Part shown: positions 19,266 to 32,059 of the stretch, piece by piece
Position numbering within the stretch: position 1 is the stretch's first letter
Layout: every line of letters begins with the position of its first letter
NCBI GenBank assembly: GCA_965261975.1
Contig: CBDHEC010000017.1
Coordinates: 1 to 64,000 of the forward strand
Direction: 5' to 3'
Source: Alphaproteobacteria bacterium
Lineage (GTDB): Bacteria > Pseudomonadota > Alphaproteobacteria > UBA6615
Length of the DNA: 64,000 nt
The notes under the pieces: model-generated
Told to the model about the DNA's origin: nothing
The model's database searches: none
Seen by the model: only the letters and a program-made list of their open reading frames with translations
Translations under genes and position numbers: made by a program

Positions 19266-20023
19266 ATGCGCGCGGTTCTCTTCACCATCCTTTTCTATGG
19301 ATGGACCGTCATTGCCGGCCTTCTCGTGTTGCCGCTTCTACTCGGCCCGCCGCGGCCACTTATGGCCTATAGCCGGTTCTGGATCCGCGTTGTGCTCTGG
19401 CTGTTGAGGAACACCGTGGGCCTGTCGCATCGGGTCGTCGGACGCGAACACATCCCCCCCGGGCCGGCGCTGTTCGCCGTCAAGCATCAATCGGCCTGGG
19501 ACACCCTGGCCATTAACCTGATCGTCCGCGATCCGGCCATTGTGCTGAAACGCGAGCTCACCTGGATTCCGCTCTTCGGCTGGTGCCTCATCCGCACACG
19601 CCAGATCGCCATCGACCGGGCCGGCGGCATGTCGGCTTTGCGCGGCATGGTCAAAGCCGCGCGCGCGGCACTCTCCGAGGGGCGCCCGATCGTCATCTAC
19701 CCCGAAGGAACCAGGGTCGCTCCGGGCGTGAAACAGCCCTATCACGCCGGAATATCGGCCCTCCACGGCGCCCTCGATGTTCCCGTTGTTCCGGTGGCCC
19801 TGAACTCCGGCGTGTTTTGGCCTCGACGATCGCTCAAACTGCGTCCCGGGGTCATCACGATCGAGTTCCTGCCCCCTTGCCCGCCGATATCCCGCGGCGC
19901 GAATTCATCGAAACGCTTGAAACGGCGATAGAAGATGCCTCGGATCGGTTGTACCGGGAAACCAATGTGACAACCGCCCGACCGAACGGCCGAGAGGCTG
20001 TGGATAAAGTTGTGGAAGATTGA
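19266..20023 (+). CDS. plsC: 1-acyl-sn-glycerol-3-phosphate acyltransferase, with -1 frameshift near 19875
   Basis: KHQSAWD, YPEGTR, VPVALNSG; FLPPLPADIPRREF is restored by adding one C in the C-run at 19872-19876. Confidence 0.8.
19999..20019 (-). promoter_or_regulatory. Tandem DnaA boxes
   Basis: TGTGGATAA (perfect TTATCCACA) at 19999-20007 and TGTGGAAGA (7/9) at 20011-20019. Confidence 0.6.
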
Positions 20024-20289: not shown

Positions 20290-20298
20290 TGTGGATAA
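20290..20298 (-). promoter_or_regulatory. DnaA box
   Basis: Perfect TGTGGATAA, intergenic. Confidence 0.6.
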
Positions 20299-28667: not shown

Positions 28668-29324
28668 CTAGTAGAAGAACGACGTCAGCAGGGCGTAGAC
28701 CCCGAAGCCGGCCAGTACGAACGCGACGATACGGTCCATCCAGAGCTGATACGACCCGTCGACGAACGGACGGAAGGCGTTCGCCGTCGTCGAAAGCGCG
28801 ATCCACCAGAGCGCCGAACCTGCAAACACGCCAGCCACCAGGATCGAGGCGTTGCCAATTGACCGGCCCGCCTCGGTAAACCCGAGGGTCGCCAGCAAGC
28901 CGGCGAACGCGATAAAGGTTATCGGATTGGTAATCGCCAACATGAAGGTCGACAGGAAGTCCTTCACGAGGCTGTGGGTCACAATCCGTTTTTGAATTTT
29001 TTCGTCCGTCCCGTCGGTTACCGGATGCGCCTGAACCATCGCGACCACGGTCCGCAGCGCCAGCAGGAGCAGTATGATGCCACCGACGAGGCGCAACGCC
29101 CCCTGGTGCCCGGTGATCCAGTCCTCGACTGCAGAGATGCCGAATGCGGCGATGGCGCCGTAGAGCGCGTCACCAAAAGCCGCGCCCAGACCGGAAATCA
29201 GGCCATGCATGCGGCCCTGAGACAATGTGCGCTGCACGCACAACACACCAACCGGCCCCACCGGCAATGCGAGGAAAAACCCGAACACAATGCCCTGGAT
29301 CAGAATGTAATCAGTTACGGCCAA
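28668..29324 (-). CDS. LysE family translocator
   Basis: LPVGPVGVLC.QRTL, GLGAAFGDALY, TNPIT, GSALWW; TTG start inferred. Confidence 0.85.
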   Translation of the reverse strand: MAVTDYILIQGIVFGFFLALPVGPVGVLCVQRTLSQGRMHGLISGLGAAFGDALYGAIAAFGISAVEDWITGHQGALRLVGGIILLLLALRTVVAMVQAHPVTDGTDEKIQKRIVTHSLVKDFLSTFMLAITNPITFIAFAGLLATLGFTEAGRSIGNASILVAGVFAGSALWWIALSTTANAFRPFVDGSYQLWMDRIVAFVLAGFGVYALLTSFFY

Positions 29325-29422: not shown

Positions 29423-30301
29423 TCAGACAATCGGTTGTGCGGCGAAATGTTGCGCCGGCGATACAATCGCGTCGCGCGCAGCAACCAGCTCGAGCTCCGT
29501 GCCGCCCCGCCGCGCCGTCTCCGAAAGAATAGCGAACACGGTGGCCACGCTGTGTTCCAGCGCCCCGGGAAGGGAGTTGCGTGCTGCGATGGAGGCTCCA
29601 AAGAGGGCGCTGAGCAGGTCCCCCGTACCATGCGGTTCCGACGGGAAAACCAGCCGGGGAGTCTCGACGCACCAGGCCTTCGAGTCGTCGAATGCGACCA
29701 CCGCGATAGTCTCCGGATTCAAATCTCGATGGTCGGCGCTGGTCACCATGACGGTGGCACCCGGTCGCATGTGCGACAAAAGCTTGCGCCCGGCTGCGAC
29801 AATGTCACTGACCGGCGCCGCCTTCAGTGCACCGGCTTCAAGACCACACAACAAGGACAATTCGTACAAGTTGGGCGTCGCGATGTCCGCGACGGGAAGC
29901 GCTGCCGTTCGGAAATGATCCGGCAGTGCGCCATCCACATACACGCCGGAACCGTCATCTCCCATTACGGGATCGCAGCAATAGACCATATCGGGATTTT
30001 CGCCCCGGACCTGGCCCACGGCGCGTGTGACCACCGCTGCAAGCGCCGGATTGCCGAGATACCCGGTGACCATCAGGTCACAATTGGGAAAAACCCCGCG
30101 ATGACCGAGACCGCGAATCAGGTCCGCGACGGTCTCGGGCGGCAAGACCTGACCGCCAACATCCGGATAGCCGGCATGGTTTGAGAGGACCGCCGTGGGG
30201 ACGGACCAGACTTCATGCCCAAGACACTGAAGCGGGAATGTGGCGGCCGAATTGCCGACATGGCCAAACACCACCTGAGACTGGATCGAAAGAATATGCA
30301 T
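29423..30301 (-). CDS. pdxY: Pyridoxal kinase
   Basis: ILSIQSQVVFGHVGNSAA, SNHAGY, TGYLG, CDPVMGD, TPNLYEL, GTGDL. Confidence 0.92.
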   Translation of the reverse strand: MHILSIQSQVVFGHVGNSAATFPLQCLGHEVWSVPTAVLSNHAGYPDVGGQVLPPETVADLIRGLGHRGVFPNCDLMVTGYLGNPALAAVVTRAVGQVRGENPDMVYCCDPVMGDDGSGVYVDGALPDHFRTAALPVADIATPNLYELSLLCGLEAGALKAAPVSDIVAAGRKLLSHMRPGATVMVTSADHRDLNPETIAVVAFDDSKAWCVETPRLVFPSEPHGTGDLLSALFGASIAARNSLPGALEHSVATVFAILSETARRGGTELELVAARDAIVSPAQHFAAQPIV

Positions 30302-30350
30302 CGCTGGGTATCGGTTTTGCGCTTGTCGCGGCGCCAGCACAAGAATTCGT

Positions 30351-30380
30351 TTGACCGACGCGAAACGCCATTGATACCTG
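30351..30380 (+). promoter_or_regulatory. Candidate sigma70 promoter of a plus-strand sRNA
   Basis: TTGACC (30351-30356), 18 nt, then TACCTG preceded by TGn; lacks the -7 T. Confidence 0.35.
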
Positions 30381-30386
30381 TCGAAT

Positions 30387-30462
30387 ATTGATCTGCCTGG
30401 ATGCGGAGCCCGGCCAAAGACGCCTGAGAAAGAGCCTGGTGCGAAAGCACCGGGCTCTTTTC
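30387..30462 (+). ncRNA. Candidate ~75-nt sRNA antisense to the 3' hairpin of the large RNA
   Basis: Orphan plus-strand terminator and upstream promoter-like sequence; body 30394-30427 repeats 30524-30552; 5' end inferred. Confidence 0.45.
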
Positions 30463-30552
30463 ATATCCCGATAGGTCTCGCACGACCCGATGCGCAGCTT
30501 GCGGAAATGAAGAAGGCGCCAGGTGCATGGACGCGGAGCCCGTGACGCCTGA
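30394..30552. repeat. Imperfect direct repeat pair (30394-30427 and 30524-30552)
   Basis: TGCCTGGATGCGGAGCCCG-GCCAAA-GACGCCTGA versus TGCATGGACGCGGAGCCCG-T-GACGCCTGA (17/19 plus 9/9 identical). Confidence 0.85.
30429..30462 (+). terminator. Intrinsic terminator, best on plus strand, possibly bidirectional
   Basis: AAAGAGCCTGGTGC-GAAA-GCACCGGGCTCTTT then T; the GAAA loop and U-G wobble both work on +. Confidence 0.8.
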
Positions 30553-30559
30553 CGCCTTC
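30505..30559 (-). terminator. Terminal hairpin / probable terminator of the large RNA
   Basis: RNA GAAGGCGUCAGG...CCUGGCGCCUUC (12 bp, one U-G) followed by UUCAUUU. Confidence 0.6.
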
Positions 30560-31380
30560 CTCGATCTTCCAACCCCGGAGTCACCCCCGGAACTTCAGAT
30601 CTTTCGGGTCCCACCCGCCGGGCTTGCGCCCCGCCGGCTTCGACCCAATACCCACATCGGCATCCAGCTTCTCATCGCTCCGCGCGTGGGACGCACCCCT
30701 GGCCGATACGTCGTCCATCGCGCTTCGCTTTTCCGGTATCGTCCGCTTTGACACGTCCCATACCGTCCCCGAAGGGATCGAAGCCTAGGTCAGCCGCCGT
30801 CCTGCAAACCCGTCCGATTGGTCGCCGCGGCTCCGAAGAACCGGGGTTTCCGACCGGCCGTCGTCTCGAATTCCTGGCCGGCGAGAGCCTGGATAACGAA
30901 ACGCTGCCGTCCTTCCTGCGCCCCGAGCCCGCCGAAGCTGGCATCCGGGCGGAGCGCGCGCTCCGAGGAGCTTGCGCTTCCGGAAAGACCGCTGGATTGC
31001 GCAACGGTGCCTTCCTTACCGGCCGACCTCTGGCTGTGTTCTTCCGAGGAAGCACACCTCCGTCCGGTCTGCCGACCGTGCCCGACCGTTGCATGGTTGC
31101 CCATGTATCGGACCGAACACATGAATGAACATCCACCGAGGCGATCGATCCCGAAGGATCATGTCCATCCGCCGACTTTCCCCCCGACCTGGCGTCACCT
31201 TGCGGCAACCCCGTTGATCCGGCGTTCGGTTCCCGTCGATCCGGCACGCCCCCTTGGTGACCGTTCCGAACCTGTCCGAGCCAACCGCAGAGCGGCTAAT
31301 CCGACCCGACAGAAACCCGTCGACACGCCAATGCGTGCACGGACATGTTCGACCGCTGCCGCAAAGGCGGCAATGTCCAA
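30505..31380 (-). ncRNA. Candidate large (~870 nt) highly structured non-coding RNA, family not recognised
   Basis: At least 10 hairpins with cUUCGg, cCUCGg or GNRA loops and G-U pairs on the minus strand only; a long-range helix; terminator-like 3' hairpin; no credible protein ORF; ends approximate. Confidence 0.7.
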
Positions 31381-31421
31381 TCGGCCCCGGCATCCAGTTT
31401 CTTGTGCAAAACTCGCCCGGT

Positions 31422-31451
31422 AGATCACAACTCCTCCACAGGTTTTCCACA
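31422..31451. promoter_or_regulatory. Phased DnaA-box-like array
   Basis: TTTTCCACA (31443-31451, fits TTWTNCACA), TCCTCCACA (31432-31440) and a weaker third box, at an 11-bp period. Confidence 0.45.
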
Positions 31452-31510
31452 CGCTACCCACGACACCGACGCTGTGCCCGTCGATCCAAGCTGTTGCGCG
31501 CGGCAGTGTC

Positions 31511-31540
31511 ATTGACGAAACGGGGGGCGGGGGTCTAAAT
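31511..31540 (+). promoter_or_regulatory. Candidate sigma70 promoter of sdhCDAB
   Basis: ATTGAC-N18-CTAAAT, similar to the alphaproteobacterial CTTGAC-N17-CTATAT. Confidence 0.55.
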
Positions 31541-31663
31541 CTGCTTTCTAGAAATACATACGCACGTGACCGTCACGAACGACTGTTTGACGGCGCGCGG
31601 CACACGGAAAACCACCGGAACCATTTCCCTGGTTCCGGCTTTGCAGCAAAGTCAGGGGGCATC

Positions 31664-32059
31664 ATGGCGACCGACAACAGACCGCTATCGCCGCACCTTC
31701 AGGTCTATCGCCCGCAGTTCACATCGGTGCTGTCGATCCTTCATCGCATCACGGGTATCGGCCTCGCCGTCGGCACACTGCTTTTGGTCTGGTGGCTGAT
31801 CGCCGCCGCCGCAGGGCCCACGGAATTTGACGCGGTGCAGAAATTCATTGGTTCGGTCATCGGGCGAATACTGCTGCTCGCCTGGAGCTTCGCGCTCTAC
31901 TATCACCTCTGCAACGGCATCCGGCATCTGGTCTGGGACGCCGGCAAGGGATTCGAACTGAGTACCGCATTCGCTTCGGCCTGGCTGGTGGTCGTCGCCG
32001 CGAGCGTTCTCACCGTCATCAGCTGGGTCGCTGGTTACGCCAGCCTCGGAGGGCTCTAG
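31664..32059 (+). CDS. sdhC: Succinate dehydrogenase cytochrome b556 subunit
   Basis: RPLSPHLQVY, SILHRITG, HLCNGIRHL.WD.G.G. Confidence 0.97.
   Translation: MATDNRPLSPHLQVYRPQFTSVLSILHRITGIGLAVGTLLLVWWLIAAAAGPTEFDAVQKFIGSVIGRILLLAWSFALYYHLCNGIRHLVWDAGKGFELSTAFASAWLVVVAASVLTVISWVAGYASLGGL

Follow-up and report, generated by a model that had tools for sequence, protein, structure and literature searches.

What is a plus-strand terminator, preceded by a copy of the interior of a neighbouring hairpin, doing at the end of a large non-coding RNA (ncRNA) that is read from the opposite strand? The question is raised by a gap of 1.36 kb between two genes, a minus-strand kinase gene on the left and sdhC on the right, in the window analysed here, a stretch of 64,000 nucleotides from contig CBDHEC010000017.1 of an alphaproteobacterium of the lineage UBA6615. 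According to the initial annotation, a convergent small RNA (sRNA) may be made in this gap, antisense to the terminal hairpin of the large RNA. Judged from the sequence of the locus and its relatives, a plus-strand sRNA gene of ~78 nt with its own promoter and intrinsic terminator is very probably real; that its main role is to pair with the 3' hairpin of the large RNA, as a dedicated antisense partner, is the reading to which we lean with modest confidence. The argument draws on the following features:

30385-30463, plus strand: predicted sRNA of ~78 nt (inferred start to end of the T-run), as matched by covariance model R1
30351-30380, plus strand: promoter-like box, consisting of the -35 element TTGACC (30351-30356) and one of two options for the -10 element
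30372-30380, plus strand: first -10 option, extended TGn-TACCTG (TGA 30372-30374, TACCTG 30375-30380) with an 18-nt spacer
30373-30378, plus strand: second -10 option, GATACC, with a 16-nt spacer
30394-30412, plus strand: antisense segment 1, a copy of 30524-30542, with the core UGGAYGCGGRGCY at 30397-30409
30419-30427, plus strand: antisense segment 2 (GACGCCUGA); its complement is UCAGGCGUC, within the 5' arm of the terminal hairpin of the large RNA; weakly supported
30429-30463, plus strand: intrinsic terminator with arms 30429-30442 and 30447-30460 and a GAAA loop
30464-30508, no strand: variable spacer between the two convergent terminators, unalignable between genera
30509-30562, minus strand: terminal (terminator) hairpin of the large RNA, with a 12-15-bp outer stem, an apical 4-bp stem and the pentaloop UCCGC at 30533-30537
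30505-31455, minus strand: large structured ncRNA of ~0.95 kb, ends approximate; the proposed target of the sRNA

The comparative sample comprised 46 genomes of the family, and the enclosing order contributes the identical 46 genomes. Labels of the form G### denote family genomes and L### individual loci, the locus of the window being L001. Model R1 matches the window at 30385-30463 of the plus strand with 93.3 bits (E 4.6e-21), and a single full-length copy is found in 34 of the 46 genomes at E <= 4.6e-8. The match in G015 is weak (E 9.5e-5), while the remaining ones are partial and cover the terminator only, G006 having an extra partial copy at a contig end. Divergent copies of the sRNA are also present in G015, in G013 and in one metagenome contig (L141). 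In the sRNA alignment A1, which holds 25 unique loci, the order of the parts is constant: TTGACCG..GCGA, TTGATA, ~14 variable bases and the core G-C-Y-T-G-G-A-Y-G-C-G-G-R-G-C, followed by a variable linker, A-Y-G-C-C, an A-rich stretch, the hairpin and the T-run. The most conserved portion of the whole unit is the core between box and hairpin, and the invariant columns of A1 are G11, C12, T14, A17, G19, C20, G21, G22, G24 and C25. The minimum free energy (MFE) of the sRNA is -36.5 kcal/mol on the plus strand (z -4.6) versus -30.1 kcal/mol on the minus strand. In the 64-kb window, no Rfam family reached its gathering score, and at E <= 10 there were only terminator-driven chance matches, the best of which (Thr_leader) reached 22.7 bits versus a gathering score of 55.

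Upstream of this body, the initial annotation had read TTGACC-N18-(TGn)TACCTG as a promoter-like element. The sequence is indeed as placed and the box is conserved, with TTGACCG..GCGA and TTGATA near-invariant across the 25 unique loci from at least nine genera; the conserved TTGACC/TTGATA elements precede the conserved core by ~30 nt, the start site of the transcript being a predicted one. The T-run ends ~110 nt downstream of the box, which stands at a fixed distance, and the pattern TTTGACCGNNGCGA-N30-50-GCGGRGC occurs in 31 of the 46 family genomes, while its reversed control occurs in none. Simple consensus scans, including that for sigma-70, report neither the sRNA promoter nor the sRNA terminator. 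The terminator was, in our opinion, perhaps missed since its A-tract and T-tract are absorbed into the stem.

The terminator itself indicates the strand. Its arms of 14 nt each are 93% complementary and are followed by TTTTC; the T-run (30458-30461) lies partly within the 3' arm and is conserved on the plus strand. Of the 325 cells formed by the 13 pairs of the helix, 98.8% are paired, and eight pairs are changed on both sides. The resulting covariation score was reached by none of 500 shuffles, and slid controls all scored far lower. Additionally, 29 cells are G-U or U-G and only one is A-C; as minus-strand RNA, the 29 G-U cells would be mismatched, so that selection on the helix is for the plus sense. 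The strong plus-strand terminator of the initial annotation is supported by wobble pairs as well as by covariation.

A quite unlikely alternative holds that no sRNA exists, 30429-30460 being a bidirectional or back-up terminator, the repeat a scar and TTGACC a regulatory or promoter site of the kinase gene. In most copies the stem is indeed flanked by an A-tract in front and a T-tract behind, which makes termination on the minus strand possible, the minus-sense fold retains the stem, and the start codon of the kinase gene lies just 12-54 nt from the box. The promoter is moreover missing from the simple scan, and assembled RNA shows no transcript there: 22 RNA-library datasets each held 7-12% of the sampled window words, and contigs from four RNA libraries include none on 30200-30563, contigs of this kind being blind to small RNAs, strand and ends and so neutral on the sRNA as well as on the 3' hairpin. 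Against this alternative, the helix is tuned to the plus sense, its 29 G-U cells turning into A-C mismatches on the minus strand, and a minus-strand U-tail is missing in some copies (e.g., L016). Unlike a scar, the core is the most conserved part of the unit, which is also kept beside left neighbours other than the kinase (L022, L034) and at a distance of 500 nt from the hairpin (G013). Transcription of the sRNA is inferred from gene anatomy and conservation. That the small transcript encodes a peptide of eight residues (ATG 30401 to TGA 30425-30427) has a next to negligible probability. The in-frame ATG...TGA spans both conserved segments in the window and its close relatives; however, the frame is broken by a linker that is 1 nt shorter in L014, L031 and L037, the ATG is absent in L017, L028 and L040, and the stop is absent in L015-L018.

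If an sRNA is made, what would it pair with? The segment 30394-30412 (TGCCTGGATGCGGAGCCCG) is repeated directly at 30524-30542 (TGCATGGACGCGGAGCCCG) with 17 of 19 positions identical, which is the longest direct repeat in 30250-31700, and the 9-mer GACGCCTGA is found at both 30419-30427 and 30544-30552. In its body, the sRNA reproduces the interior of the hairpin, interrupted by an additional linker of ~5 nt. Complementarity of sRNA and hairpin results from the opposite directions in which the two copies are transcribed. In both respects the initial annotation was accurate, namely in its repeat of 30394-30427 and 30524-30552 and in the duplex of 19 nt with one mismatch and one G-U, which resolves into 17 Watson-Crick pairs, one U-G pair and one C-U mismatch.

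The second copy was expected to be retained in homologous loci and to change together with the first, and it is retained in all 33 unique canonical loci. In each of them the core is able to pair with the hairpin apex GGCUCCGCGUCCA over at least 13 positions, with single-position breaks in five loci. Variable core positions are mostly compatible with wobble pairing (U/C opposite G, A/G opposite U, C/U opposite G): a change of U to C opposite G improves the pair in L028 and L040, while A to G opposite U in many loci and C to U opposite G at two positions keep a wobble. By our own count, ~4 of 7 wobble-tolerant core positions vary versus 2 of 7 G positions, a difference in the expected direction that is not significant. 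At one position, the pair is A-U in the window, G-U in L005, L008-L013 and L024/G052, and, with a changed hairpin, G-C in G047 and G048, in which both hairpin and sRNA read GCGGGGCC; an A in the sRNA is combined with a C in the target in no locus. A change in both partners is thereby seen at no fewer than one position (G047/G048), and three divergent lineages mirror their own hairpins. Promoter box, core, terminator and hairpin recur jointly across the family, and it is this family-wide conservation that gives the pairing case its weight; the evidence from the window alone is moderate and suggestive.

One might also regard the two copies as DNA sites for a single sequence-specific protein, arranged as direct repeats ~130 bp apart and without any pairing of RNA with RNA. 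We consider this very unlikely. While the word GGAYGCGGRG is kept in both copies and changes jointly in some lineages, copy 2 lies within a helix that evolves by the rules of RNA, through compensatory and wobble changes, and copy 1 is flanked by a promoter-like box and a covarying terminator. Furthermore, the spacing between the copies ranges from ~110 to >500 bp (an unchecked estimate), and the paralogous hairpin of G018 and G059, described below, is solitary.

In the divergent lineage G015 (L113), an extra arm is present and the interior of the hairpin is different; the sRNA GGTGCATGGACGCGGGGTTCAT faces the hairpin GGTGCGTGGACGCGGGCCCAT with, as judged by eye, 16 bp including one mismatch, a bulge and then 5 bp. 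In G013 (L044), the sRNA is located ~500 nt from the hairpin, has a variant box and is without the canonical terminator; here the sRNA GTGCATGGACGCGGGGTCCGTCGC and the hairpin GTGCGCGGACGCGGGGTCCATCGC form ~23 bp with one mismatch, again by eye. In the metagenome contig L141, the sRNA copies both arms of the hairpin (CAGGTGC...CTCCTGACG). In G013, G015, L141 and G047/G048, the first loop base is C and the opposite base of the sRNA is G; the sRNA therefore tracks its own hairpin in at least four lineages. As a separate observation, the ~500 nt inserted between sRNA gene and hairpin in G013 (L044, reverse-complemented, ~1270-1410) include a long inverted repeat, GAGCCGGGGCCCAGGAACACGGAA ... TTCCGTGTTCCTGGGCCCCGGCTC, by which the insertion could be a mobile or REP-like (repetitive extragenic palindromic) element.

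Predicted energetics indicate at which stage such pairing would be feasible. When the sRNA body was compared with the 961-nt large RNA by RNAduplex, the best site was the terminal hairpin (30523-30558, -54.2 kcal/mol). The sRNA covers the 5' arm and the apex of the hairpin and leaves the outer 3' arm free. For a nascent target, computed as the hairpin minus its outer 3' arm, the free energy difference upon binding (ddG) is -35.4 kcal/mol in the window, a value that none of 200 body shuffles attained (mean -11.9, best -26.3). The corresponding value for G013 is -24.7, again with none of 200 shuffles as low, and even with the folded hairpin G013 gives a ddG of -12.6 kcal/mol (0 of 200 shuffles). 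This pattern fits a co-transcriptional capture of the 5' arm or, alternatively, a chaperone-aided start by contact between the GCGGR and YCCGC loops; the genome encodes Hfq.

Several observations, however, weigh against pairing with the hairpin as the main role. The second duplex of 9 bp that had been proposed is present in the window, but segment 2 is exact in only 10 of the 25 aligned sRNAs and gone in G015 and G013, although its A[CT]GCC core is retained in 24 of the 25. Within the main core, pair-breaking changes are found from G to A in L004, from G to A in L014, L040 and L079, and from U to A in L017. As direct repeats in DNA, the two copies have complementarity and identity kept alike, and gene conversion over short tracts (~20 nt) would mimic their covariation. 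G016, G018 and G059 retain the hairpin core GGACGCGG, yet no sRNA was detected in them by R1 or pattern searches, and the paralogous hairpin keeps this core too; the sRNA does therefore not explain the conservation of the hairpin. Most likely, as these sequences suggest, the hairpin is conserved for reasons of its own and the sRNA evolved to match it. The pattern TTGACC-N36-50-GRAYGCGG gave matches at control level in G016, G018, G014, G024 and G057, and a duplicated match in G018 was judged not to be an sRNA.

The energies also count partly against this role. Out of 300 dinucleotide shuffles (mean -43.3, sd 2.8), at least one beats the native duplex of -54.2 kcal/mol, the best reaching -56.2. 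With the folded hairpin, the ddG in the window is only -6.2 kcal/mol, and 2 of 200 body shuffles are as low, while in G015 it is 0.0 kcal/mol with 168 of 200 shuffles as low. Even for the nascent target, the value of G015 (-10.9) is not significant, being equalled or surpassed by 43 of 200 shuffles. When the energies of 10 sRNA bodies were computed against each of 12 hairpins, 7 of the 10 sRNAs had their cognate hairpin as the best or joint best partner; the cognate hairpin was not the best for G001 and L141 and was the worst of its row for G015. In sum, the initial interpretation stands with respect to sRNA anatomy, strands and conserved complementarity, while its second duplex is weak and the energy gained with a folded target is small.

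These last points bear on a further explanation, to which we give a limited, distinctly minor probability: the sRNA is real, but its working targets would be mRNAs elsewhere, and the likeness to the hairpin would be a relic of duplication or the large RNA a sponge. The anatomy of the gene, with promoter, unstructured conserved core, A-rich stretch and terminator, is an ordinary one for a trans-acting sRNA, Hfq is available, equilibrium binding to the folded hairpin is weak, and the hairpin core is conserved even where no sRNA was found. A genome-wide scan with the 13-nt core, however, gave 708 matches versus 342-2141 for 20 shuffled cores and hence neither enrichment nor a candidate, though its criterion (wobble allowed, <=1 mismatch) was too permissive for the result to be informative. 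Among the matches listed, full pairing with no more than one wobble occurs only at the hairpin and at the sRNA gene itself. Moreover, hairpin changes confined to a lineage are matched in the sRNA of that lineage, behaviour not expected of a relic, and the linkage of the two genes is kept in all lineages but one.

Under the favoured pairing with the hairpin, the sRNA body would be a diverged local copy of the interior of the terminator hairpin that became antisense through transcription of the opposite strand. Its GCGGR would contact the hairpin loop YCCGC first, and pairing would then extend over the apical stem into the 5' arm, giving 13-24 bp depending on the lineage. The terminator hairpin would thereby be opened or pre-empted, and the sRNA would affect the large RNA at its 3' end, with one of three possible outcomes. 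Removal or exposure of a protective 3' hairpin might alter how the large RNA is processed or how stable it is, for instance if RNase III cleaves the duplex. Alternatively, binding of the nascent 5' arm might reduce termination and allow read-through towards the kinase gene, which would proceed antisense across the sRNA gene into that gene. Finally, a functional loop might simply be masked. Action on the large RNA itself, by 3' processing or stability or by masking of the loop, is favoured, and antitermination is given a smaller share: the left neighbour varies (L022, L034, G016, L141), and control of read-through into the kinase gene is therefore not a universal role, which likewise speaks against that part of the scheme. 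A rather doubtful extension, about as tentative as that of mRNA targets elsewhere, would be a natural two-RNA system in which the hairpin docks a dedicated 78-nt RNA that is transcribed separately and arose from a local hairpin copy, either as a stoichiometric subunit of the large RNA particle held by a kissing contact (GCGGR:YCCGC) or as a natural counterpart of small transcription activating RNAs (STARs) by which the terminator of the large RNA is switched off.

The hairpin that forms the proposed target is well defined. Its MFE is -40.9 kcal/mol on the minus strand (z -6.1) versus -35.1 kcal/mol on the plus strand, it is near-invariant in 19 loci, and its pattern is present in 30 of the 46 genomes. 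The minus-strand tail varies in sequence and retains its U-richness. In L076 and L077, the outer stem shows compensation from GAAGGCG/CGCCUUC to GAAAGCG/CGCUUUC, and minus-sense wobbles are seen in L079 (G-C to G-U) and L048 (C-G and A-U to U-G and G-U). That the large RNA ends in this hairpin, as had been proposed, is borne out by the strand difference in MFE, by conservation and by the U-rich tail. A scan of metagenomes with a 15-base pattern of low specificity yielded one real hairpin (L141) among the 117 matches listed. Apart from this locus, the two genomes of one genus have a second hairpin of the same architecture at an unlinked position (L133, G018:C59, ~120830-120851; L132, G059:C10, ~29132-29153), with the outer stem GAGACGCCAAG/CTTGGCGTCTC, the core GCGCGGACGCGGGAGCCC and an extra arm; a paralogous large RNA may end there.

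With regard to the large RNA, all 11 further genomes of the genus retain the entire gap at 71-95% identity. Of 13 other genera in the family, 10 have colinear blocks of it, as have none of the 16 other families sampled; on this sample, the RNA is restricted to one family of uncultured marine alphaproteobacteria. The exact 40-mer of the hairpin occurs in 22 records, the titles of which all name uncultured marine Alphaproteobacteria or Rhodospirillaceae metagenome-assembled genomes. RNAalifold on 18 loci gave -137.6 kcal/mol in the minus sense versus -58.2 kcal/mol in the plus sense, and the 161 minus-sense pairs comprise 459 G-U cells versus 51 A-C cells; both contrasts uphold the earlier view of the element as a structured RNA of the minus strand. 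C(UUCG)G loops are frequent on that strand. The three longest open reading frames (ORFs) of the large RNA have no match in Pfam, and its indels are not frame-preserving. Contigs of the four RNA libraries, which stem from four studies, cover 30584-31327, and one further contig lies on sdhC; as assembled contigs give no strand, ends or level, they cannot prove transcription of the large RNA. Two whole RNA contigs from two studies measure 637 nt (30688-31324) and 635 nt (30683-31317), a near-coincidence that may hint at a stable processed core of the large RNA. A loose end of one RNA contig (G021-type sequence) stops ~5 nt before the hairpin of that relative and may be suggestive of a 3' end. In the genus of G018 (L020, reverse-complemented, ~870-1010), a module of ~70 nt with two hairpins (GGATCGTTGAGCCCGAAGGCTGTCCCGACCCGGTGGTTCTCCCCATCCGAAGA...) is duplicated in tandem, just inside the terminal hairpin. 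Apparent mimicry of the sRNA by the 5' part of the large RNA (inverted repeat of core and 31382-31397) was treated as chance, as it is unconserved beyond close relatives. Within the literature searched for the large RNA or a similar pair of RNAs, nothing on this locus was listed.

The flanking genes place these two RNAs in their genomic context:

29426-30301, minus strand: PdxK/PdxY-like kinase gene (Pfam PF08543, E 6.1e-16)
31664 onward, plus strand: sdhC (Pfam PF01127)

The kinase gene is divergent from the sRNA promoter and co-directional with the large RNA. Its assignment to PF08543 on the minus strand bears out the earlier statement that no plus-strand gene lies upstream of the sRNA terminator. 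A left-hand ORF on the minus strand with the N-terminal motif ILSIQS..GHVGN, recognised by eye, is found in 12 of 15 loci checked, and in these the kinase start sits 12-54 nt to the left of the -35 box of the sRNA. L022 and L034 have a different left neighbour, and in G016 and L141 the end of a plus-strand, convergent ORF adjoins the left side. In the window, only 49 nt (30304-30350) lie between the kinase start codon (30301) and the -35 box, and no conserved minus-strand promoter is evident there; kinase transcription may begin inside, or cross, the sRNA gene. The spacer between the two terminators measures ~27-103 nt over 25 loci (an unchecked reading from the scripted sRNA end to the hairpin search motif) and ~500 nt in G013. 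By virtue of this spacer, the transcription units of sRNA and large RNA do not overlap, so that the pair is not an overlapping cis-antisense one.

On the side of sdhC, a TTGACG-N17-CTAAAT element at 31514-31541 of the plus strand is kept in all genera, including the AT-rich one, and is likely, from its sequence, to be the sdhCDAB promoter. With the promoter placed there, the large RNA lies upstream of it and is therefore not the 5' untranslated region (UTR) of sdhC. Just before sdhC, a 10-bp hairpin at 31614-31639 is conserved within the genus and was scored as terminator-like on the minus strand in the consensus scan, with the tail GGTTTTCC. Flanking the large RNA on its 5' side, an invariant block contains two words resembling DnaA boxes (TTWTNCACA), TTTTGCACA at 31403-31411 of the minus strand and TTTTCCACA at 31443-31451 of the plus strand, and in L019 one of the flank words is the perfect DnaA box TTATCCACA. 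A replication origin at this flank was considered and dropped, as the GC skew keeps its sign there; the words may mark a DnaA-responsive promoter. Elsewhere in the window, perfect boxes of the same sequence stand at 19999-20007 and 20290-20298 of the minus strand, 291 bp apart, the window as a whole has four DnaA-box consensus matches versus 0.95 expected, and the AT skew changes sign around 16-22 kb.

How does this arrangement compare with known systems? In bsrG/SR4 and txpA/RatA, the genes are convergent, the RNAs pair at their 3' ends after contact via complementary stem-loops, and the duplex is expected to be cut by RNase III and to govern decay of the neighbour. These pairs are type I toxin-antitoxin systems of Bacillus subtilis (PMC3834814, PMC3531473). 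The locus resembles them in that its genes are convergent and the small RNA is antisense to the 3' terminal region of its neighbour; a first contact between stem-loops and an RNase III-dependent effect on decay would be expected here as well. In contrast to them, where overlap of the genes provides perfect cis complementarity, a spacer separates the genes here and complementarity stems from a displaced copy; moreover, the target is a structured RNA of ~0.95 kb with no conserved ORF and no Pfam match, apparently in place of a toxin mRNA. In tisB/IstR-1, shoB/OhsC and zorO/OrzO of E. coli, adjacent antisense sRNAs that do not overlap their targets share ~19-21 nt of complementarity with them. 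Here, too, an sRNA gene lies beside its proposed single, dedicated target with short, imperfect complementarity and no overlap. Those sRNAs, however, are divergent and block translation of a toxin mRNA at its 5' UTR, while the present one is convergent and faces the terminator hairpin of an ncRNA. By analogy, the locus would be closest in logic to the convergent type I pairs with 3' pairing, with adjacent sRNAs of the IstR-1 type, STARs and plasmid antisense attenuators also close.

Another comparison is offered by synthetic STARs, which are reported to act by disrupting formation of a terminator hairpin in the target (10.1101/022772). The sRNA resembles them in being complementary to the 5' half of an intrinsic terminator, including its apex, and a STAR-like mode would fit the large energy gain that is predicted solely for a nascent target without its 3' arm. 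Unlike the engineered STARs, whose terminator lies upstream of a reporter, the terminator here ends an ncRNA, and a co-directional gene downstream is not universal, the kinase gene being present in only 12 of 15 loci. In antisense attenuation of pT181 and pIP501, as in kissing-loop control of ColE1 and R1, stem-loops meet loop-to-loop during transcription of the target. Complementary stem-loops, loop-to-loop contact and an outcome set co-transcriptionally are likewise proposed here; yet those antisense RNAs are encoded in cis and bring about a terminator within an mRNA leader, while the sRNA would dissolve or mask the terminator of a chromosomal ncRNA. To our knowledge, no large bacterial ncRNA such as OLE, GOLLD, ROOL or HEARO has a known dedicated partner sRNA, and a direct natural example of pairing between an sRNA and the intrinsic terminator of another RNA is not known to us. 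The one candidate, the action of CyaR on the SgrS terminator, was dropped as a precedent, since its authors judged the effect to be indirect (PMC9765468).

Besides promoter and terminator, the sole conserved feature of the sRNA is its being antisense to the end hairpin of the large RNA. Going by gene anatomy and comparative data, we regard the sRNA as the founder of a new family and the arrangement as a probable novel variety of dedicated antisense control. Should binding be confirmed, the pair would offer a handle on the function and turnover of an otherwise unknown large RNA, would provide an example of an sRNA that evolved by copying the terminator of its target, and would possibly serve as a natural model for terminator-targeting riboregulators.

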